A stretch of 64,000 nucleotides of DNA from positions 32,050 through 96,049 of the forward strand of contig CASFAV010000003.1 in NCBI GenBank assembly GCA_949292905.1, read 5' to 3'. Source of the DNA: an uncultured Eubacteriales bacterium (lineage in GTDB: Bacteria > Bacillota > Clostridia > Christensenellales > DTU072). This document shows positions 11,485 through 39,083 of the stretch, in pieces. The notes under the pieces were generated by a model. The model saw only the letters and a list, made by a program, of their open reading frames with translations. It was not told the origin of the DNA and ran no database searches. Made by a program: the position numbers and the translations under genes. Every line of letters begins with the position of its first letter. The first letter of the stretch is position 1.

Positions 11485-13011
11485 TTAACCCTCCTTCTTG
11501 ATATCGCCTACGGTCTGACGTCCGCTGATGTCGCCCGAGAAATATGCGCTCGAATATCCCGAAAGCCTCATCGAGAATCCGCCCGCGAATCTCAAGCCTC
11601 TTGTGCGGTAATCTTCGTCCATCATCATCAGACGGGGCATAAGACCGTCCCAATATTGAGATTCGTAGCCGTAGATACCGCCTTCCGGATGACCGCAATA
11701 TCTCGCATAGGTCATCGGGGTGGCGATGGAAATCTCTTCTATACTGTCGCGTATCTTACTTCCCGTGTCTTCCTCGAAGCGCGTGATCATTTCGGAGGCA
11801 ACGTATTCTTTGGTGCGTACGTAATCCTCCGGTTTGACCTTCGCCCAGTCGTTGGAGGTATAAAGCGTGGTGAAGTACATCATGCAGGTGCCTTTGGGCG
11901 AGCAATCGGGATATGCGTTGTTAAGGCATACCGTGGCCTGCACCTTATTGGTCTCTATGCGCTTCATGGCTTCGTACTGCTTTACGGAATCCATCGTGTC
12001 GTAGAGGAAGTAGTTGTGGTTCTGTATGCCTAGTTCTTCCGCAGACTTGTTCAAGCCGAGGAACATCGTATAGCCTCTGCCGGCAAACTTGCGGGCATTT
12101 GTAGCTCTGACTACGGATTCAGGCACGTTCTTCATCATCTTGCCGTAGACGACGTGAGGGGAGCAGTTGGCTACGACGTGGCGCGTTTCGATTATTTTGC
12201 CGTTCGCGAGCACCACGCCTTCGATACCGCCGTCGGTGTCGGAGGTGAGAAGCTTGACTGCTTCGGTGTTGAACCATATTTCGCCGCCGAGCTCGCGTAT
12301 GCGTTCTGTGAGCGCAAGCGAGATCTCGTGCGAACGCATTTTCGGCATGGACGCTCCCTTGGTAAGGTAGCGGTACACCATCGACGCATAGTGTACGAAA
12401 CTCAGATCGTCGCAATGCGCGCCGAGATAACACCAGTAAGCGTTGAGTATCTTGATCGCCTCTGTAGGCATACGAAGCGCTTTGAGCACTTCGTTGACGG
12501 AGTAGGAGCCTACGCGCACGAAGTTGGAATACTTGTCGAGCATGACCTTTTTGTCGGTCTTGCCGTTGACGGAAGAGCTGTAAGCCTGCGCCGCGTGTAT
12601 CTCTTTGCATAGCAGGAAGAATTTTTCCATCGAGGGACGGCTACCCGGTACGTAGGACTCCATTTTGTCGGTGAACTCTTCCACGCCGAAAGGCATCAGC
12701 GCGTCGAGTTTGTCTTCGCGGGAAATGACGCGGTAGGCGTCGGGGATCTCCGTCCAGTCGATCTTGTCCGTTACGCCGAGCGCGTCGAAAAGATCGCGGA
12801 CGTCGCCGCCGTTGTCCTTTGTCCCGAAATCGTTGAGCTCGTGCAGAGAAGCTTCGAATTCGAATCTGCCTCTGCGGAAACTCGTTGCGAATCCGCCGGG
12901 CAGATTGTGTTTCTCGACGACGAGTACGCTGGCGCCGCCTTGCAGCAGGCGTATTGCCGCGACAAGTCCGCCGTTTCCGGCTCCTATCACGACAGCATCG
13001 TATTTATTCAT
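11485..13011 (-). CDS. FAD-dependent oxidoreductase, phytoene-desaturase (CrtI)-like family
   Basis: 508 aa with the N-terminal dinucleotide fold 'YDAVVIGAGNGGLVAAIRLLQGGASVLVVEKHNLPGG'. It is translationally coupled to the FNR-like gene. Confidence 0.75.
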   Translation of the reverse strand: MNKYDAVVIGAGNGGLVAAIRLLQGGASVLVVEKHNLPGGFATSFRRGRFEFEASLHELNDFGTKDNGGDVRDLFDALGVTDKIDWTEIPDAYRVISREDKLDALMPFGVEEFTDKMESYVPGSRPSMEKFFLLCKEIHAAQAYSSSVNGKTDKKVMLDKYSNFVRVGSYSVNEVLKALRMPTEAIKILNAYWCYLGAHCDDLSFVHYASMVYRYLTKGASMPKMRSHEISLALTERIRELGGEIWFNTEAVKLLTSDTDGGIEGVVLANGKIIETRHVVANCSPHVVYGKMMKNVPESVVRATNARKFAGRGYTMFLGLNKSAEELGIQNHNYFLYDTMDSVKQYEAMKRIETNKVQATVCLNNAYPDCSPKGTCMMYFTTLYTSNDWAKVKPEDYVRTKEYVASEMITRFEEDTGSKIRDSIEEISIATPMTYARYCGHPEGGIYGYESQYWDGLMPRLMMMDEDYRTRGLRFAGGFSMRLSGYSSAYFSGDISGRQTVGDIKKEG

Positions 13012-18325: not shown

Positions 18326-18610
18326 ATACCCTCCCGTGCGCGCACGGCGCGTTCGCGTGCCGCGCATATATTGTAACCCCTGCGCACCGCGAAAGCAATA
18401 GCGAATTTATACCGTTTTGCGTTACGGCGTCGTTTCCGAACGAAATTACGCCTACGAGATAGTTTACGGAGAAAACACCGCTGTCGAGGTCGACGTGCTG
18501 AAGTAAGGACTTTATCAATATACCGCTTACGCCACCGACGTCTACGGCAACCGTTTTGCCGCGGGAACAGCCGTGATCGGCATAGACGACGGGCAAACCG
18601 CAACTCTTTG

Positions 18611-18629
18611 CGTAACGTCCGACGTTACC
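18611..18629. promoter_or_regulatory. Perfect 9-bp inverted repeat, candidate operator
   Basis: cgtaacgtc-c-gacgttacg lies in the leader upstream of the symporter gene. Confidence 0.3.
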
Positions 18630-18801
18630 GATTACAACGCTTAACCGTCAAAAGCAAATAAAAATAAAAAGCACTTATTTTTGCGTTCGGAAGGCTTGTT
18701 TTCTTGAGATTCACGATAAAGCAGTCGATCGATCGAACATGATAATGTGTAAAAATATATTGCACGCCTGAAGCGTGTAAAAAATTATTTTGCGAAAAGA
18801 C

Positions 18802-18830
18802 TTGAAATTTTTTTTAACCGGTGGTAAGAT
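18802..18830 (+). promoter_or_regulatory. Candidate sigma-70 promoter of the E1/E2/JAB operon
   Basis: TTGAAA (18802-18807), a 17-nt spacer, then TAAGAT (18825-18830). It would give a leader of about 390 nt. Confidence 0.35.
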
Positions 18831-19219
18831 TTATAACAAGGGGAAATATTTCGACAAGAAATTTTATTTTTCGTGAGCGAACGTCACAACAGAAACATCT
18901 TGCCGGAGAATTACCGTTTGAAAGGTTTGAATTTATAGACGCATAAGGCGCGTTTATGCCTTGAGCGGCTTTACTTCAGGTTTACTTCAAAAAAACTACA
19001 GTTTGCAAGCGCGGGAGTATTTTACGTCGTACATCCGTCGTCCGCCCGGGCATTACCGAGTACGTATATTGCCGGTCCGCCGATCGGGGGAACGTTTTAT
19101 GGGAGGTTTACTTTCTTGCGTTATCAAAGGGAAAGACTGCCCGATTTAATCAAAGCTTACCGTATTTTTCAATTTCCGAATAAGTAATTAAAAAAATTTT
19201 TTATAAAGGAGAAACAATT

Positions 19220-19549
19220 ATGAAAAGAAAAGTAGTACTCAACATCAGTGGTCAGAAAGCCATTTCCGAAGAGATCGAGATGGAAGCCGTCATCTATAAG
19301 GATCTTGCGCGCCTCGCGCCCAAATATCCCAATACTTTCGGCAGGGCAGACGACAGCAACTCTTACGCCTATAAGCTGATCAACGTCACGTTCGACAAGA
19401 ATCAGTCCACGGTCAAGCTAACCTGTAAAGACGGCGCCAGAATGGCGTTGGACATGATGCTCCCGTGGAATCAGGCGGAATCCGAGTTCGCAAAGATCAA
19501 CGGAGCCGCCGACGTCGAGCTCACGCTCGCAGGTACGGTAGGCGATTGA
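19220..19549 (+). CDS. Small protein, candidate ubiquitin-like modifier (C-terminus ...ELTLAGTVGD)
   Basis: This 109-aa protein is the first gene of the operon, with RBS AAGGAG. It shows an alternating beta/alpha pattern. The last strand-like segment, 'VELTLAGTVGD', has a penultimate Gly. The call rests on context only. Confidence 0.45.
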   Translation: MKRKVVLNISGQKAISEEIEMEAVIYKDLARLAPKYPNTFGRADDSNSYAYKLINVTFDKNQSTVKLTCKDGARMALDMMLPWNQAESEFAKINGAADVELTLAGTVGD

Positions 19550-19551
19550 AA

Positions 19552-19580
19552 GGCTGCGGGCTCGGGTAAAGCCCGCAGCC
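19552..19580 (+). promoter_or_regulatory. Intercistronic 11-bp GC-rich stem-loop
   Basis: ggctgcgggct-cgggtaa-agcccgcagcc lies 3 nt after the stop of the first gene. No T-run follows it. Confidence 0.6.
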
Positions 19581-19611
19581 CGCAATCGCAAAAGTCAGGA
19601 GGTGAAGATCT

Positions 19612-20211
19612 ATGACCGGTATGGACGTTTACAGAATGCTTGCAAATACGATCAACGCCGCGTTGGGGTCCCCGGGCAATGTGTCGCTCGAGAGGACCGT
19701 AGACCAGAAATGCAAGATAATCATCAGCGATATTCCCGTATATCCTTCGGGGAAAGGGGGGTATCTGGTAGTTTATTTTCCGCTTGATTTCGTAAAAGTC
19801 GCGGGAAACAACGATCTTATCTGCAGAGAGCTTACGCAAAACGAGATACGGATATTCAACGGCAGCAGACCGGATACGAAAAAAGCGCTCGCGCATACCA
19901 ACGTTTTCGAAGACGGGCATCCTTGCTTGGGCGGTGGCGGCAGTTTGGTAAGGATATCCGGCGTTTACGATTTCGCCGCGTATATAGTGGAGTCCGTTCT
20001 GCGCGTAAACATGACGGAGCAAGCTTTTTTAAGCCCTGCCACACGGAAATACGGCGCAACCGTCGAGCAGATGAGAGCGTTCAAGGTAAAGGTCAGGCGC
20101 ATGCTTGCCTCGAGTTTCCGCGAACGCGTTATGAATCAGGTCGATCATTCCCAGATATACAGATACGTTCGGGAATATTTCAACGATCAATATTGCGCTA
20201 ATATCGGGTGA
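19612..20211 (+). CDS. E2 (UBC)-like conjugating enzyme, divergent
   Basis: 199 aa. 'AHTNVFEDGHPCLGGGG' mirrors the eukaryotic E2 active-site pattern HPN-x(5-8)-G-x-I-C-L. The candidate catalytic residue is Cys105 (nt 19924-19926). It is preceded by 'YPSGKGGYLVVYFPLDF'. RBS AGGAGG. Confidence 0.65.
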   Translation: MTGMDVYRMLANTINAALGSPGNVSLERTVDQKCKIIISDIPVYPSGKGGYLVVYFPLDFVKVAGNNDLICRELTQNEIRIFNGSRPDTKKALAHTNVFEDGHPCLGGGGSLVRISGVYDFAAYIVESVLRVNMTEQAFLSPATRKYGATVEQMRAFKVKVRRMLASSFRERVMNQVDHSQIYRYVREYFNDQYCANIG

Positions 20212-20215
20212 CGTT

Positions 20216-21199
20216 ATGAAAAAAGTTATTATCGACACAAGGTTATACGAAGATATACTTACTTTCGGCGAAAAATACGATTCGTTTTGCGTTAAACTCA
20301 GCTGTTCGCTCGTAAAGCTGAACGAAAACGCGGAACTTTACGCTTGCGTGAGAGGCGGGGAAGGGATACCTTGTCCCGTCTATCTTGCCGACAGTCGTAT
20401 GCGCGCGGAAGAAAACCGGAACGCCGATGCGTGCGACAAATGGATCGAAGCGATACGTAGAGCGGATACCGCGGAGCTCAAGTTCTATGAGAAGACCGCA
20501 GACGGCGTCACCGGCGTAGAGGTCATCGCAGGCGAGCATACGCTCAGGATCGCCAAACCGTTAGCCGCGACAATGCGGCGACTGTCTACCGAGCGGAATA
20601 AAGTGATAATAATTTCGCACGAAAAGCGTTACGAAGAAGCGGATAAGGCGGAATTTCAGAGCCGTAGCGTGCTCTCGCTGGCCGAACTGGATTCTTCCGC
20701 GGTCGACATCGTATATTTCGAAGGAGCGGATAAGCTTTTGGAGAAATTGTTGTACGCCGGCTGCAGAGAGCTCAACGTATTCGTTCCCCATACCCGAAAC
20801 GACAAAAATATTGTCAAGACGCTCAGAAAATTAAGTAAAAAGGCTCCGTTCGGTAACCGTATCGCCGTTGCGATAGGTAACGATTACGAGCCCGGCAGTT
20901 GTTGTAAGCTCATAGTGGGACCGGCCGAAAGGATAGCCGGGTGTAACGCTTATAAAGTGTTCTTTTCCACGGCATACAATGGAGAACTCGGAAAGTTCGT
21001 CTACGTGGGGCAGAATACCGCAGACCTTATCCCGGAGCAAACGCGGTACCGCCTTAAGCCGCATACCGTTCATTACATAACTTCCGTCATGAGCGAACTC
21101 ATCTTGGCAGCGCTTTCGGAGAAGAAGTATTCGTCCGGTAGGCTGTATACGGTCAAAGCCAACGATCTTACCACAGAAACGATTTATAAGGAGGATTAA
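20216..21199 (+). CDS. Hypothetical protein, Rossmann-like; possibly a degenerate E1-like domain
   Basis: This 327-aa gene lies 4 nt after the E2 gene. 'KVIIISHEKRY' sits where an E1 would carry GxGxxG. 'VDIVYFEGADKLLEKLLYAGC' and the C-terminal 'HYITSVMSELILAALSEK' loosely parallel ThiF-fold segments. This is weak, by-eye similarity only. Confidence 0.3.
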   Translation: MKKVIIDTRLYEDILTFGEKYDSFCVKLSCSLVKLNENAELYACVRGGEGIPCPVYLADSRMRAEENRNADACDKWIEAIRRADTAELKFYEKTADGVTGVEVIAGEHTLRIAKPLAATMRRLSTERNKVIIISHEKRYEEADKAEFQSRSVLSLAELDSSAVDIVYFEGADKLLEKLLYAGCRELNVFVPHTRNDKNIVKTLRKLSKKAPFGNRIAVAIGNDYEPGSCCKLIVGPAERIAGCNAYKVFFSTAYNGELGKFVYVGQNTADLIPEQTRYRLKPHTVHYITSVMSELILAALSEKKYSSGRLYTVKANDLTTETIYKED

Positions 21200-21202
21200 A
21201 CC

Positions 21203-21865
21203 ATGTTCGTAATTGCCGTTCAGACGGAATTGAAGTCTCTTGCAAATTGTGCGGAGACTAACGTAATGACAAGAAGCGGTTATCAGATAGTGACGGATCA
21301 CGAAGTCTATTTCGTCAGCAAAGAACGCTTCCTCAATAAATACAAGGGTAATCTTTATATGGTGCCTTCAGCAAAAGACAGACTGCTTACTTTCGAAGAA
21401 GCGAGCGTATTAAGGAGCGCTATCGAAGAACTCGAGAGCGGTAAGCTGATCAAAGTCAAGGGGAAAAACCGCTACGAAAAGTTTGACAGGGACGGAGCCA
21501 ATTACAGTATATCGCTCCCGTCGTCCGACGTTGAGATAGAGGCTAAAGCCATACGTTGCGAATTCAGCGGAAACAACAGCAACCTCCGCGTCAAGACCGA
21601 GAATTCCGCGCTTGACGCGACCGCATCCAATTCGACCTTCGATATTTCGGCAAACGATACCGTAGCCACCATGTACGTTTCCAACTGCTTCATCGAGTTG
21701 AGCGGAGTGGGCTTAAAAGTGATGATCGTCGGAAACAACAATACCGTTAGCGGTATTACCGACGGGATCGAAGTTTTTTCGAGGGGCAGAAAAAACGAAT
21801 TCCGCAGAAAGTCGGAAGCCACGAGTGAGGATACCTCCAAACGCAATATCCGAGGAGGACGATAA
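21203..21865 (+). CDS. Hypothetical protein with beta-helix-like repeats and a basic disordered tail ending RGGR
   Basis: 220 aa with RBS AGGAGG 8 nt upstream. Residues ~115-195 are short N/S/T/V-rich repeats, bactofilin or beta-helix-like by eye. The tail is 'RKSEATSEDTSKRNIRGGR'. The stop overlaps the next ATG (TAATG). Confidence 0.5.
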   Translation: MFVIAVQTELKSLANCAETNVMTRSGYQIVTDHEVYFVSKERFLNKYKGNLYMVPSAKDRLLTFEEASVLRSAIEELESGKLIKVKGKNRYEKFDRDGANYSISLPSSDVEIEAKAIRCEFSGNNSNLRVKTENSALDATASNSTFDISANDTVATMYVSNCFIELSGVGLKVMIVGNNNTVSGITDGIEVFSRGRKNEFRRKSEATSEDTSKRNIRGGR

Positions 21866-23463
21866 TGGATAAAAAAGCCTTGGTTTATATGCCTAAATCC
21901 TGTTACGACAGAATGATAAAGCATATTTATATCGATCCTTCCAACGAGTGCGGCGGCTATTTGATAGGGAACCGCGTCGATCTCGACAACGCTTATGTCT
22001 TTTCCGTGAGGGAGCTGTACAGCGAGGTGCGTTTCGGGACGCAGAGCCGCTTCGAATTCAAGTTGGATTATACCTCGAACGCGCAGGAATTTACAAGGAA
22101 GTGGCAGAGAGCGCGTCGTTGCGACGATTTTCTGGTTGGGACGTATCATTCGCACGGGACGTTCGACGCATTCCACAGCAGCGTCGACGACGTATTCGCG
22201 AGACTTTTCAACCTTATGATCATTCTGAGTCCCGCGACCGGCAGGATAGAAGTATGGTATTGGTGCCTCGGGCTCGCGCAATGGTTCGAGGGAGAACTAA
22301 TAGTATACGACGACGAGGAAAATGACGGGAAACGGCGTCCCGTCTACGTCGAAGAAAGCGAGCTTTGTTCCGGTAAGGAAAAATTCCGTATGCGCATATT
22401 TCGCAGGAACAAAAAAGAGCTCGCGCCGCAAAAGAAGGTCCTGATAGTCGGCTGCGGAACTCTCGGCAACCTGCTCGCGGAGCATTTAATAGACGCTAGG
22501 CACAATGCCGAGATCACCTTCATCGACAGAGACCGTTACGAGACAGCCAATCTCCCGCGCAGTCCCGTTATAGACGCGACGGCGGTAGGCAGCCCCAAGG
22601 CGTTCGCGCTTGCCGAAGCGGTCGCGAGGGAAGCGCGAATGTCCTACGCCGTAAGAGGAATAATAGGGGACGTAAGAGAATTTTCGCTTGATTTTTTCGA
22701 GCAATTCGACGTAATAGTCACCCCTTTAGATAACCTCGAATGCAGGTATTACGTCAATTATTGCGCTACCGTTCTCAATAAAGCTTACGTCAATCTCGGT
22801 ACTTCGTATACGGGATTTAACGGACTGCCTTTATTCGGCGGAGACGTATTCTATAAGCCCTTCCGGGCTACGACGTGCCTGGATTGCTTTTACCTCCTGT
22901 ACAGAGGAAACGAGGAGATGCTCCGTAAGCGCGTGTCGTGCGGAGGCGCTCTGCCCGAGAAGGTGGTCCCGCAAGTCATCTCTTCGTCTATGCTGATAGC
23001 TTCGATCGCTTTCGTGTGTCTTAAGAAAGCTCTGAGGCACGACCGATCCACGGTGGCGACAGGCTATAACATAAACGACGTAAGCGCGTCCTACGACAGG
23101 TTTTTCAATGTCGCCCCCGTAAGGACGAGCGCCCGATGCAGCTTTGCCGCGGCACACGCTGAGAGCGACGGGATAGAGACTATAGAGATATCCGCCGGAA
23201 CGCATCTGCGTACGTTATATCGGCGCGTGCGCAAAATATTCAATGACAAAACCGAAGACAAAGTTTACGAGATAAACATGATGTCGTCGTGCCTTACGCA
23301 GGTCAAATACCGTACCGAGAATCCCATTCATTCGATAACCCTCGACAAAGAGAGTATCGGACGGATGCGCGACGTCATTCGCTACGATTATTTTCCAGCA
23401 GACCATATATACGCGGTCAGCTCCGCGGAGAACGTCAAATATATCCGTATAAAATTAAGATAA
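21865..23463 (+). CDS. JAB/JAMM isopeptidase fused to E1-like (ThiF/MoeB-fold) adenylating enzyme
   Basis: 532 aa. The JAMM motif is complete: Glu28 ('NECGG') and H95-S-H97-x7-S105-x2-D108 (nt 22147-22188). The E1 half has 'VLIVGCGTLGN' (GxGxxG, nt 22450-22467), 'FIDRDRYETANLPRS', 'PLDNLECRYYVNYC', the pair C338xxC341 and 'VSC359GG'. Confidence 0.85.
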   Translation: MDKKALVYMPKSCYDRMIKHIYIDPSNECGGYLIGNRVDLDNAYVFSVRELYSEVRFGTQSRFEFKLDYTSNAQEFTRKWQRARRCDDFLVGTYHSHGTFDAFHSSVDDVFARLFNLMIILSPATGRIEVWYWCLGLAQWFEGELIVYDDEENDGKRRPVYVEESELCSGKEKFRMRIFRRNKKELAPQKKVLIVGCGTLGNLLAEHLIDARHNAEITFIDRDRYETANLPRSPVIDATAVGSPKAFALAEAVAREARMSYAVRGIIGDVREFSLDFFEQFDVIVTPLDNLECRYYVNYCATVLNKAYVNLGTSYTGFNGLPLFGGDVFYKPFRATTCLDCFYLLYRGNEEMLRKRVSCGGALPEKVVPQVISSSMLIASIAFVCLKKALRHDRSTVATGYNINDVSASYDRFFNVAPVRTSARCSFAAAHAESDGIETIEISAGTHLRTLYRRVRKIFNDKTEDKVYEINMMSSCLTQVKYRTENPIHSITLDKESIGRMRDVIRYDYFPADHIYAVSSAENVKYIRIKLR

Positions 23464-23474
23464 GGAGGACTACA

Positions 23475-23987
23475 ATGAAATACGCAATACTCGTATGCAA
23501 TCAAAGAGATAGATTCCAATGCGCTGAATGTAATAAATTGACTTCCGCCGGCTATCAATTAGTCGACGATAACGAAACGAAGTTCGTTTGCAGTGAGTGT
23601 TATTCGGACTTTATGCGGCAGTATCCTCAACAAGGAAACAGCGTGAAGCAGCTTATTCCGGCCGAAGTGCTTTTTGCCGACGGGGACGTCGCGCGGAATA
23701 CCGTAGATGAAAGCGTCGAGTCCGTAGCGGAGGAAAGCTCCGGCTATATAGGAGAGCTCGTATCCGACGGTCACGGAGGGTGGCGCGAGCCCACGGCGGA
23801 AGAACTCGCGGCGATGAACGCGAGCGCGAACGCAGTTGACTACGGCGCTTCGTGTATAACTGAAGACACTCATGCCGTCAATATCCGTTATCGCTTCACT
23901 ACAGATAATAAACTCCAGATTATGTTACCCAAACGGTGTCGGATAGACGACAGAACCTACGAGATCGTCGTCACGACCACGGATTAA
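23475..23987 (+). CDS. Zinc-ribbon protein (4-Cys), candidate adaptor or E3-like factor
   Basis: I trimmed the track ORF to the ATG at 23475, preceded by AGGAGG. 170 aa with C16xxC19...C39xxC42 at the N-terminus, an acidic linker and a C-terminal beta-rich domain. Confidence 0.55.
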   Translation: MKYAILVCNQRDRFQCAECNKLTSAGYQLVDDNETKFVCSECYSDFMRQYPQQGNSVKQLIPAEVLFADGDVARNTVDESVESVAEESSGYIGELVSDGHGGWREPTAEELAAMNASANAVDYGASCITEDTHAVNIRYRFTTDNKLQIMLPKRCRIDDRTYEIVVTTTD

Positions 23988-23992
23988 AACGT

Positions 23993-24685
23993 ATGGACGA
24001 ACTCGAAAGATACAATAACCGTATCGACACGATCATTCCGCGCGAGACCGTGTTTCCGTGTTGCTTCGTGACTACGCCCAAGCAGATGTTTATGTCGCTT
24101 ATGGCGGGAGAAAGGGTGTGCTTTAAGGGATACAACGAAGCGGCGCGATATTATTTGCGGACTGCGGAAATATTCCGCAGTCTGTATGCGCCCGGTATGA
24201 GCGATTACGGCTTCGTCCTCGCGTTGAATAATTACATTGTGCGCAATATCCGTTACGATTACGACGTATTGACTAAAAAAACGCTTACGCCGGAAGATAT
24301 GGAAAGCTTCGAGATAGACGCTCCGCTTTTCAAGGGAAAGGGAGTATGCTCCGCCAAAAGCAAGTTTTTTTCGCTGCTGTGCGCGTTGGCCGATATCCGC
24401 ACGGTATTAGTGACGGGTTCTCTCAAGGGTTGTAAAGACGACTCGAGACACGCTTGGAACAAAGTGTTTCTGCAGAAGCCGGGCGATAGCGCGCCCAAAT
24501 GGTGGAATATCGACGTAACCAACAATCGCGTGCATCACCGTTTCGATCTCGGCTACAGAGATTATTTTCTTGTAACCGACAGAGAGATCATGCGCACGCA
24601 TTTTTTCATAGAATACGACGAAACCTTCGAATACAGGCAGATCAACCGTCTTGTCACCGGTTCTCTCGATTATCCTGCGGCGTGA
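23993..24685 (+). CDS. Transglutaminase-like cysteine protease-fold protein
   Basis: I trimmed the track ORF to the ATG at 23993. 230 aa with a Cys-His-Asp triad in the canonical spacing: 'GKGVC119SAKSKFF', 'SRH153AWNKV' and 'WWNID174VT'. Confidence 0.7.
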   Translation: MDELERYNNRIDTIIPRETVFPCCFVTTPKQMFMSLMAGERVCFKGYNEAARYYLRTAEIFRSLYAPGMSDYGFVLALNNYIVRNIRYDYDVLTKKTLTPEDMESFEIDAPLFKGKGVCSAKSKFFSLLCALADIRTVLVTGSLKGCKDDSRHAWNKVFLQKPGDSAPKWWNIDVTNNRVHHRFDLGYRDYFLVTDREIMRTHFFIEYDETFEYRQINRLVTGSLDYPAA

Positions 24686-24762
24686 ATCCTCGACTTCGGT
24701 CGTTGCGGAGCGGGCAAACTGAGTTTATATTGCGTAACACGATACCGTTTCGGTATAAGGGC

Positions 24763-24806
24763 GGCAAACGCGCGTAAATCATTATACGCGCGTTTGCCGT
24801 TTTTTC
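24763..24806 (+). terminator. Intrinsic terminator ending the seven-gene operon
   Basis: Hairpin ggcaaacgcgcgta/tacgcgcgtttgcc followed by tttttt. Confidence 0.85.
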
Positions 24807-38986: not shown

Positions 38987-39002
38987 TTTGGCGGAGAGAG
39001 TG
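38987..39002. repeat. Proximal att-like direct repeat (overlaps tRNA 3' end)
   Basis: tttggcggagagagtg is identical to 26734-26749. Confidence 0.75.
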
Positions 39003-39083
39003 GGATTCGAACCCACGAAGCCCTTATTAGGGGCTTACACGATTTCGAGTCGTGCGCGTTCAACCGGGCTCCGCCATCTCTCC
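38989..39083 (-). tRNA. tRNA-Ser (anticodon CGA), CCA encoded
   Basis: Hand-folded. Acceptor stem GGAGAGA/TCTCTCC. Anticodon stem CACGA/TCGTG with loop CT-CGA-AA. A long variable arm (GCCC...GGGC). T arm GTGGG-TTCGAAT-CCCAC. Discriminator G plus CCA. Confidence 0.9.

Follow-up and report, generated by a model that had tools for sequence, protein, structure and literature searches.

Does the gene cassette at positions 19220 to 24806 of a 64,000-nucleotide (nt) stretch from an uncultured Eubacteriales bacterium (contig CASFAV010000003.1, positions 32,050 to 96,049 of the forward strand; hereafter the window) encode a complete ubiquitin-like conjugation pathway, and is that pathway one that already has a name? 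A first-pass annotation, made from the letters of the window alone, had seen here seven co-directional genes with gaps of -1 to 62 nt and had proposed a conjugation system of unrecognised composition. The layout is indeed of this kind, as the intergenic gaps from g1 to g7 measure 62, 4, 3, -1, 11 and 5 nt. We estimate the probability that the cassette is a complete thioester-type ubiquitin-like conjugation pathway, carried as a mobile unit, to be about 70%. The genes are listed below; the starts of g6 and g7 were chosen to match those of homologs and those in gene calls made independently for identical contigs (aa, amino acids; E1, activating enzyme; E2, conjugating enzyme).

g1, 19220-19549, + strand, 109 aa, ends VGD: candidate modifier with a ubiquitin-like (beta-grasp) fold; predicted to be conjugated through Gly108, with Asp109 as a predicted removable tail
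g2, 19612-20211, + strand, 199 aa: E2-like conjugating enzyme; His95 and Cys105 form the predicted active site
g3, 20216-21199, + strand, 327 aa: orphan, clade-specific
g4, 21203-21865, + strand, 220 aa: degenerate copy of the g6 zinc-ribbon domain, then a repetitive C-terminal domain; clade-specific
g5, 21865-23463, + strand, 532 aa: JAB/JAMM peptidase fused to an E1 adenylation domain, then a conserved C-terminal domain
g6, 23475-23987, + strand, 170 aa: four-Cys zinc ribbon, acidic linker, conserved C-terminal beta-rich motif; predicted adaptor or substrate selector
g7, 23993-24685, + strand, 230 aa: transglutaminase-fold Cys-His-Asp enzyme; predicted thiol (iso)peptidase

The candidate modifier and conjugating enzyme

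The AlphaFold2 model of g1, with a predicted local distance difference test score (pLDDT) of 80, shows the order of elements b-b-a-(a-a)-b-b-a-b followed by a disordered C-terminal tail. Almost all of its Foldseek matches in the PDB were beta-grasp or ubiquitin-like domains. The RAWUL domain of Ring1B came first (5e-4), and further matches included TBCE-Ubl, ISG15, ubiquitin and Hub1, with probabilities of ~1 and template modelling (TM) scores of 0.45-0.62. The C-terminal sequence L-A-G-x-V-G is invariant in the homologs (at least 12) and is followed by 0-3 variable residues, the tails being none, D, A, TN, VAV, RG, INY and others. The same signature is found in BilA, which has a universally conserved Gly and a short non-conserved tail that is cut off by its JAB peptidase. 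The model and the conserved C-terminal Gly indicate that g1 is a beta-grasp ubiquitin-like protein (Ubl) of the kind that bacterial Ubl operons contain. At one of the homologous loci, which we number from L001, the Ubl gene is present as two tandem near-identical copies (L001, 7034-7725), and their tails after the Gly differ (INY versus LH). The modifier and the putative E2 are separate genes 62 nt apart in the window and separate open reading frames (ORFs) in every close-relative locus checked.

The assignment of g2 draws on several comparisons. Its AlphaFold2 model (pLDDT 74) consists of an N-terminal helix, a beta-meander, a long active-site loop and then helices, which is the order of elements in an E2. 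The loop, residues 91-112, was modelled with low confidence and carries the sequence H95-T-N-V-F-E-D-G-H-P-C105-L. The best Foldseek matches in the PDB were mostly E2s (UbcH5b, UbcH8, UbcH7, UBE2E2 and UBE2W) or RWD-like domains, and the scores were weak (E = 0.03-1, TM 0.3-0.44); in a viral structure library the most probable match, also weak, was a giant-virus E2. Searches with hidden Markov models (HMMs) gave no match of g2 among PDB sequences, and neither g2 nor its distant relatives matched the Prok-E2 families of Pfam.

Conservation within the family points in the same direction as the fold. In eleven members with identities down to 15%, residues P45, G47, P57, H95, P104 and C105 are invariant, and the H95 and C105 pair persists over the whole range of 15-64% identity. 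The sole local match found by hhalign between g2 and a hand-entered sequence of UbcH5b placed H95..C105 on H75-P-N..C85, with the equal spacing of 10 residues and a common Gly at +7. By eye, the F56-P-x-D-[FY] motif of g2 also fits UbcH5b. The order of the fold, the weak E2 matches, the invariant His and Cys, and the UbcH5b alignment together give g2 the character of the E2 in a bacterial Ubl operon. With the gene context added, these weak but convergent lines, among which there is no single significant score, make it very probable that g2 is a UBC-like (ubiquitin-conjugating) E2. The folds that the first-pass annotation had expected and the E2-like active site that it had read from the letters were thus recovered, a beta-grasp in g1 and, less strongly, an E2-like fold in g2, and the His and Cys of that site hold even at 15-22% identity.

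The JAB-E1 fusion

The strongest matches to known families come from g5, in which a JAB/JAMM domain (residues ~1-135) is followed by an E1 adenylation domain (~186-400) and a conserved C-terminal domain (~401-532). Pfam detected Prok-JAB at 2e-12 and a single ThiF domain at 4e-22 (residues 185-399). The JAMM and ThiF/E1 residues quoted in the first-pass annotation are all present, and in 15 homologs with 42-100% identity the JAMM residues E28, H95, H97, S105 and D108 are invariant, as are the nucleotide loop G196xGTLG, D289, C338xxC341 and C359. Judged by these residues, g5 has the features of an E1 (nucleotide loop, catalytic Asp, crossover Cys) and the intact JAMM site found in bacterial Ubl operons.

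We aligned g5 by MAFFT with E1s of distant operons (25-33% identity) and with a hand-entered sequence of E. coli MoeB. The C359 column was invariant and aligned with C187, the crossover-loop cysteine of MoeB. The equivalence of C359 and C187 rests on this MAFFT alignment, as BLASTP of the g5 E1 domain against MoeB aligned the Rossmann half only. The CxxC motif is not universal among the distant E1s, and C359 is invariant even where CxxC has been lost. Since C359 is invariant and aligned with MoeB C187, the E1 domain of g5 appears to be of the thioester type. The C-terminal domain of g5 was also considered as a possible Ubl homolog, but hhalign gave no match between the two and the idea is unsupported.

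When the g5 family profile was run against the PDB, the best matches were the eukaryotic E1s UBA6, UBA3, SAE2 and UBA1 (2e-10 to 1e-8), which ranked above MoeB (1e-7), MccB and Cap2. The fact that the E1 domain also matches ThiF, MoeB and MccB raises the question of whether any protein is conjugated at all: the enzyme could instead act in sulfur transfer, as with ThiS/MoaD, or in peptide maturation, as with MccB, with g1 as the carrier or precursor. We regard this as extremely improbable. Unlike in loci of ThiS/MoaD sulfur carriers, there are no rhodanese, thiamine or molybdopterin genes in the cassette or its flanks, and no export genes either; a conserved E2 with invariant His and Cys is present together with a JAB peptidase, and the E1s of ubiquitin, NEDD8 and SUMO rank above MoeB and MccB.

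Among the models of PADLOC and NCBIfam, the E1-E2 and JAB models of PADLOC and the 6A-MBL cap2_3 model of NCBIfam matched g5 at 1e-11 to 1e-6. In PADLOC, g5 was the only protein matched, by generic E1 and JAB parts and not by a named system, and the other six proteins gave no match; no Pfam or NCBIfam model matched g1-g4 or g6.

The transglutaminase-fold enzyme

The assignment of g7 to the transglutaminase fold with a Cys-His-Asp site, proposed earlier from the letters, agrees with a Pfam Transglut_core match at 1.7e-10 and with the triad C119/H153/D174, which is invariant in all homologs, including those in loci L004, L010 and L012 that are only 19-21% identical. The function of this enzyme is less clear than its fold. 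In the type I Bub system, a JAB-E1 fusion is paired with a second peptidase, BubE, that strips conjugates. The simplest reading, modelled on BubE, makes g7 a second isopeptidase, one of the thiol type.

A different possibility is that g7 provides the output of the pathway or its ligase: in one version it would act like an E3, as a transamidase making the last isopeptide bond, and in the other as an effector protease that becomes active once g1 is conjugated. Transglutaminase-fold enzymes can both form and cleave isopeptide bonds. Genes of the g7 type have been kept in three of the four distant operons that we inspected in detail (L004, L010 and L012). Some of these operons already have two or three separate JABs, so a further deconjugase looks redundant there, and for this reason a ligase or effector role of g7 is a live rival. 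Furthermore, no other candidate effector is recognisable in the cassette. Set against this are the BubE precedent of a second peptidase that strips conjugates and the fact that Bil E2s need no E3. We consider a role of g7 as ligase or output unlikely, and the preferred reading of g7 is the isopeptidase.

Zinc ribbons and orphan proteins

The four cysteines of the zinc ribbon that had been recognised in g6 (C16xxC19..C39xxC42) proved invariant. The ribbon is followed by an acidic linker, a conserved GELVPDGxGGWRxPT motif and a conserved beta-rich C-terminal segment, and g6 had no significant match in PDB or Pfam. The ~60 N-terminal residues of g4 are homologous to this ribbon (hhalign probability 93.5%, E = 2e-7), although the copy in g4 has lost three of the four cysteines. 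By this profile alignment, g4 and g6 are paralogs in their N-terminal domains. The rest of g4 is a repetitive Asn/Ser/Gly-rich segment, and its ortholog in L003 consists of a 90-aa N-terminal domain only. The description of g4 as beta-helix-like was a reading by eye.

A more careful comparison of the end of g4 bears on the earlier proposal that the cassette has two possible Gly-terminal substrates. The C-terminal RGGR of g4 is literally present in the window, but it is not conserved across homologs. In the sister strains the gene ends ...AATATC TGA GGAGGCCGAT ATG, so that a stop codon stands before the Shine-Dalgarno sequence of g5. In the window (21850-21867), CGA replaces this TGA and g4 overlaps the start of g5 by 1 nt, so that the Shine-Dalgarno sequence is translated into the RGGR tail. 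Hence, RGGR is the product of a recent stop-codon loss and not a feature of the protein. With the tail absent from the sister strains, we rejected g4 as a second Gly-terminal modifier and g1 is left as the single one.

For g3, an exhaustive phmmer search recovered nine proteins among 1.84 billion representative proteins, all of them apparent orthologs, and profile searches of the PDB were empty. The term Rossmann-like, used for g3 in the first-pass annotation, retains as its basis a weak NAD_binding_7 match (E = 0.12) and a FQKRSV motif, seen by eye, that is followed by a beta-alpha-beta segment VDIVYFDGAxKLxEKLLYGGC; the PDB and hhalign searches lend it nothing. An inactive E1-like partner was considered, but hhalign against the JAB-E1 alignment gave a probability of 0.2 and did not support the idea. 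The conserved polar residues of g3 are E78, K137, R150 and E294, and the protein may either be an enzyme or assist the E1 as a Rossmann-like partner.

Conservation of the cassette and its distant relatives

The family is extremely rare: in 5.8 billion proteins the E1 is represented by 16 clusters, the E2 by 13 and the Ubl by 11. Nevertheless, the seven genes occur together and in the same order in at least eight independent loci with unrelated flanks and 42-90% E1 identity, and all ORFs are intact; co-occurrence outside this genome, which the first-pass annotation had made a test of its proposal, is therefore established. The loci with the full order are the window and its sisters L029-L038; L001, L002 and L006; L003, in which g4 is short; L020-22; L023-25; and L026-27. 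A scan of the GTDB species representatives found only two relatives, both distant (29% identity), and the cassette had no match in PLSDB (72,556 plasmids), in the phages of INPHARED or in the viral sequences of IMG/VR. The family is confined to uncultured bacteria that are apparently gut-associated.

All distant operons, with E1 identities of 25-32%, keep the Ubl, an E2 of the same family, an E1 with or without the fused JAB, and at least one JAB domain. It follows from their contents that the core of the wider family is Ubl, E2, E1 and JAB, usually with a zinc ribbon, a transglutaminase fold or both. As g3 was not found in the distant variants L004, L010, L012 and L015, and by the distribution of their homologs, g3 and g4 are additions of the clade to which the window belongs. 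L004, from a Faecalibacterium metagenome-assembled genome (MAG), has zinc-ribbon proteins and a transglutaminase-fold enzyme. Besides a further stand-alone JAB, L010 has a transglutaminase-fold gene that lies on the opposite strand; a zinc ribbon was not seen in this operon, and its Ubl ends IVG. L012 has two stand-alone JABs, a zinc-ribbon protein and a transglutaminase-fold enzyme, and its Ubl ends in G followed by LFT. In L015 there are two stand-alone JABs as well as a zinc-ribbon protein; the stretch inspected contained no transglutaminase-fold gene, and the Ubl ends VVG. The zinc ribbons of L004, L012 and L015 show the same C..C..GY..C..C pattern as g6. The contigs of L005, from an Oscillospiraceae MAG, and of L009 are short and show no more than the E1, or the E2 with the E1.

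Several details of these distant operons are of note in their own right. In L004, the E1 is followed (11592-12224) by a zinc ribbon with a C-terminal region that, by eye, resembles an inactive MPN/JAB domain (GYLLG...LLGIYRTSP), and a second zinc-ribbon protein of 137 aa precedes the Ubl-like ORF. A conserved protein of 190-200 aa stands directly after the E1 in L010 (11778-12380), L012 (4377-4952) and L015 (10914-11486). It is followed by two JAB proteins each in L012 and L015 and by one in L010, and one of the JABs of L012 is fused to TPR repeats. The E2 gene of L012 is split by a frameshift.

Leader, terminator and left flank

Two further features delimit the operon.

upstream region, 18641-19219, + strand: AT-rich; presumed promoter and leader; ends in the ribosome-binding site (RBS) of g1
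intrinsic terminator, 24757-24806, + strand: operon end

The strong terminator that had been noticed at the end of the cassette is a ~20-bp GC-rich stem, perfectly paired and with UUUUUU after it, and has a folding energy of -37.2 kcal/mol and z = -6.5. The ~850 nt of AT-rich DNA said to precede g1 was only partly borne out: the GC content is 0.40-0.46 in ~18640-19219, compared to 0.50-0.56 around it, whereas the stretch 18368-18640, between the MFS gene and the AT-rich leader, is GC-rich and holds remnant-like short ORFs on both strands. Gene callers disagree on this stretch, calling either a + strand ORF of 75 aa or a - strand ORF of 96 aa, and it may be what is left of a gene. The MFS gene has itself shrunk to an 84-aa remnant in L038. 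The RBS of g1, AAAGGAG, lies 8 nt 5' of its ATG. A promoter scan upstream of g1 gave promoter-like matches at a rate that did not exceed that of shuffled sequence, and the promoter was not located; an Rfam search of the leader gave no meaningful regulatory RNA match.

Genomic context and mobility

The window is chromosomal, with genes for FTHFS, citrate synthase and glycoside hydrolases and without conjugation genes within its 64 kb. In comparison with the sister strain L033 (89.5% identity), homology ends exactly at the stop codon of g7. To the right of this point the window has a GNAT-ZIP gene, and beyond it an island of low GC content that encodes an SMC-like ATPase, an AlwI endonuclease and two Dam methylases; other strains have an IS200-type transposase with SIR2-STAND, or SfsA/FtsK. 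By these gene contents the site on the right is a variable, defence-type slot. Every strain recovered via the flanking genes in an empty-site comparison carries the cassette. The only tRNA gene for Ser(CGA) of the window (38989-39083, - strand) lies ~5.8 kb beyond the restriction-modification (R-M) island and is a possible integration landmark of the variable region.

Around the homologous cassettes the neighbours are different. A TraG/VirD4 coupling protein of a type IV secretion system (T4SS) is encoded a few genes upstream in L001, L006 and L020, a related ATPase is found downstream in L004, and ClpP is found upstream in L006 and L020. In L020 (1-9551) and L006 (4359-7233), the region upstream holds ClpP, a 200-aa orphan and the TraG/VirD4 coupling protein, and in L020 also a transglutaminase-kinase fusion, TIR-Sel1, TIR-TPR and a PG_binding/Peptidase_C39-like protein; this region looks like the cargo of a conjugative element. 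In L002 the cassette follows a PP2C gene and a kinase-Card1 protein. In L023-25 it comes after an HTH-Zn-ribbon gene and a WYL/WCX regulator, the latter in divergent orientation. The varied flanks, with coupling proteins, TIR, WYL/WCX, R-M and SIR2-STAND genes, lead us to regard the cassette as mobile and at home among conflict genes, and from this context a defence or accessory role is plausible.

The same flanks admit another interpretation, in which the biochemistry is unchanged but serves the mobile element: as conjugative cargo, the cassette would modify recipient or donor proteins in order to blunt defences, help establishment or exclude rivals. It is favoured by the T4SS coupling protein close upstream of the cassette in three loci and the related ATPase in a fourth, by long co-directional runs of small genes of unknown function that are common to several elements, and by the report of Iyer et al. 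that related E1/JAB operons are carried on integrative and conjugative elements (ICEs) and plasmids. However, the species of the window has the cassette in its chromosome, in a defence-type variable slot with no conjugation genes within 64 kb; the WYL/WCX regulator beside the cassette in L023-25 is typical of defence loci; and there were 0 matches in the 72,556 plasmids. We consider service to a mobile element a serious possibility, albeit one with the odds clearly against it.

The locus group L023-25 also bears on the fate of the conjugates. Directly upstream of its cassettes, in the same direction, are genes for a 108-aa protein, a 966-aa protease and a 395-aa orphan (L023, 3434-9956; also L024 and L025). 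The protease is a soluble, FtsH/Cdc48-like AAA_2+AAA+Peptidase_M41 protein, and the arrangement may represent a link between Ubl conjugation and an AAA+ protease. If so, g1 could be a degradation tag whose conjugates go to such a protease, in an analogue of the ubiquitin-proteasome or Pup route. The AAA_2+AAA+Peptidase_M41 gene and the two small genes stand directly 5' of g1 with overlapping stops and starts, a ClpP gene is located upstream in L006 and L020, and the FtsH ternary systems described by Aravind also join an FtsH-like protease to Ubl conjugation. On the other hand, the association with the protease is found in one lineage only, and since the window and most loci lack the AAA+ protease, it lies outside the conserved unit. 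We regard the degradation tag as decidedly improbable.

Proposed mechanism

The conjugation pathway proposed here starts from what was observed, namely the folds and motifs of g1, g2, g5 and g7, the gene order and the contexts. Everything beyond this is inferred from motifs and from the parallels with Bil and Bub: each enzymatic step, what g3, g4, g6 and g7 do, which proteins are targets, and what the cassette is for. As the modifier, g1 (109 aa, beta-grasp) would first have the 0-3 residues after Gly108 trimmed by the JAB domain of g5. The E1 domain would then adenylate Gly108 and take g1 onto Cys359 as a thioester. From Cys359, g1 would pass to Cys105 of g2, whose H95-x9-C105 mirrors the HPN...C of eukaryotic E2s, and would then be attached to lysines of target proteins. 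Since the JAB sites are intact even in orthologs whose g1 has no tail, JAB probably also deconjugates.

The zinc-ribbon protein g6 and its paralog g4 would most likely dock on this machinery and choose or localise the targets, or be targets themselves. The ribbon head is conserved and the tails vary, being beta-rich in g6, repetitive in g4, and composed of a coiled coil and transmembrane segments in L012; judged by its sequences, such a combination looks like the pattern of adaptors or receptors. As the second, thiol-type isopeptidase, g7 would most likely reset or restrain conjugation, as BubE does in Bub. The biological role would most likely be that of a conflict module, in defence against phages and plasmids or as its element-borne counterpart.

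A number of observations weigh against this pathway or parts of it. The best Foldseek E-value of g2 is only 0.03, its TM scores are at most 0.44, and the pLDDT of its active-site loop is below 50. The transglutaminase fold of g7 could equally well belong to a ligase or transamidase or to an output protease. Profile, phmmer and hhalign searches detected no relatives of known function for g3, g4 and g6, and as these three have no characterised relatives, nearly half of the cassette is unexplained. The Pfam, PADLOC and NCBIfam scans recognised no effector, and no phage-defence phenotype is known. The links to conjugative elements would also allow an offensive or establishment role in place of host defence. 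Finally, in L004 the last residue of the Ubl-like ORF is Ala in place of Gly.

A broader picture can be drawn from the same material, and we offer it as a doubtful one. The family would be ancient and distinct, with an E2 site of eukaryotic type, g7 as a ligase or effector, and the zinc ribbons as interchangeable receptors. Carriage on conjugative elements would serve to tag the proteins of the other party, and some lineages would feed the FtsH/Cdc48-like AAA+ protease, in a bacterial ubiquitin-to-unfoldase degradation route.

Comparison with known systems

Returning to the question of whether the cassette already has a name, we note that protein conjugation by Bil, Bub and type II CBASS (cyclic-oligonucleotide-based antiphage signalling system) was demonstrated only recently, and that these systems figure centrally in thinking on the origin of eukaryotic ubiquitination. 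Iyer et al. 2006 defined five types of JAB/E1 operons, 6a-6e, none with this seven-gene composition. The first-pass annotation held the architecture to be unseen. This stands insofar as no named system matches gene for gene, but the N-terminal fusion of JAB to E1 was already known from type 6e and BubCD. None of the three checks that the first-pass annotation had set for its own refutation (folds, co-occurrence, a named match) went against it. We found no description of such an operon in the literature searched; there may be a prior account in papers of the Aravind laboratory (Proteins 2009; Mol Biosyst 2011).

The closest system in construction is type I Bub (BubAB, BubCD, BubE), which corresponds to type 6e or 6E.1 of Iyer, Burroughs and Aravind and is defined by the JAB-E1 fusion BubCD. 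As in g5, a JAB is fused there to the N-terminus of a single-domain E1, and the positions of the JAB residues are near-identical (E28/H91/H93/D104 in BubCD and E28/H95/H97/D108 in g5). Common to both systems are also a Ubl, an E2 and, besides JAB, another peptidase which either binds zinc or is paired with a zinc-binding protein, and both are found on mobile elements or in defence loci. However, type I Bub proceeds through oxyester intermediates (Tyr/Ser), with no Cys in the crossover loop of its E1 and a Ser in its E2, whereas Cys359 of the E1 and Cys105 of the E2 are invariant here. The Ubl and E2 are fused as BubAB in Bub and are separate genes here. None of the seven proteins contains BubE/DUF6527 (PF20137; Pfam, E <= 1), the place of which is taken by the transglutaminase-fold Cys enzyme, and g3, g4 and g6 are extra genes. 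The E1 profile of g5 matched no Bub protein in the PDB at E <= 0.001.

The Bil systems (BilABCD, type I and II; 6C/CEHH) share with the cassette the Ubl, E2, E1 and JAB activities, separate genes for Ubl, E2 and E1, thioester chemistry and the defence-island context. They differ in their E1, since BilD is large, has the IAD-AAD-CYS layout and carries its Cys on a mobile domain, whereas g5 has one adenylation domain with the Cys in the crossover loop, and in their JAB, which stands alone as BilC but is fused to the E1 here. The E2 of Bil is of the CEHH type, with a Cys and then a downstream His, while the His of g2 is located 10 residues before the Cys, as in eukaryotic UBCs. Genes for zinc ribbons and transglutaminases are absent from Bil.

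Type II CBASS with Cap2/Cap3, and its 6A-MBL and Pycsar relatives, have E1 and JAB domains in common with the cassette, but their model matches to g5 span only ~100 residues of the Rossmann core. Furthermore, Cap2 is an E2-E1 fusion that conjugates the CD-NTase and not a Ubl, and there is no cyclase, effector or MBL gene in the cassette. The Ub/E1/E2/RING/Rpn11 operons of eukaryotic type (Caldiarchaeum and some bacteria) resemble it in the canonical-looking H-x-N...C site of the E2 with eukaryotic spacing, and in that the E1 of g5 is nearest to eukaryotic UBA6, UBA3, SAE2 and UBA1. Unlike these operons, the cassette lacks a RING E3, its Ubl does not resemble ubiquitin in sequence, its JAB and E1 form one protein, and identity of g2 to any E2 is undetectable by HMM. 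PRTRC (ParB-related, ThiF-related) is likewise a ThiF-family gene cassette, which travels with conjugative elements and is found on proteobacterial ICEs. It occurs in different taxa and has no transglutaminase gene, and no PRTRC model of NCBIfam was among the matches of the seven proteins (for g5, among the best 25 of 31 matches).

In summary, by the residues and gene order described above, the cassette would operate like Bil and is built like type I Bub, and it fails the defining features of both. Within the bacterial ubiquitination-like systems, the E2 family, the Ubl family and the three orphan components are apparently undescribed, and sister architectures are already known. The free E2 has the His-Cys geometry of eukaryotic UBCs, yet it is invisible to current Pfam and PADLOC models. 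The zinc-ribbon paralogs may be primitive substrate receptors, the orphans g3, g4 and g6 offer a chance of new activities, and the extreme rarity and compactness of the cassette make it a tractable target for biochemistry. The family would thus add to Bil, Bub and type II CBASS a fourth architecture, which combines a thioester-type E1 with fused JAB, a free E2, a transglutaminase-fold thiol protease and zinc-ribbon paralogs.

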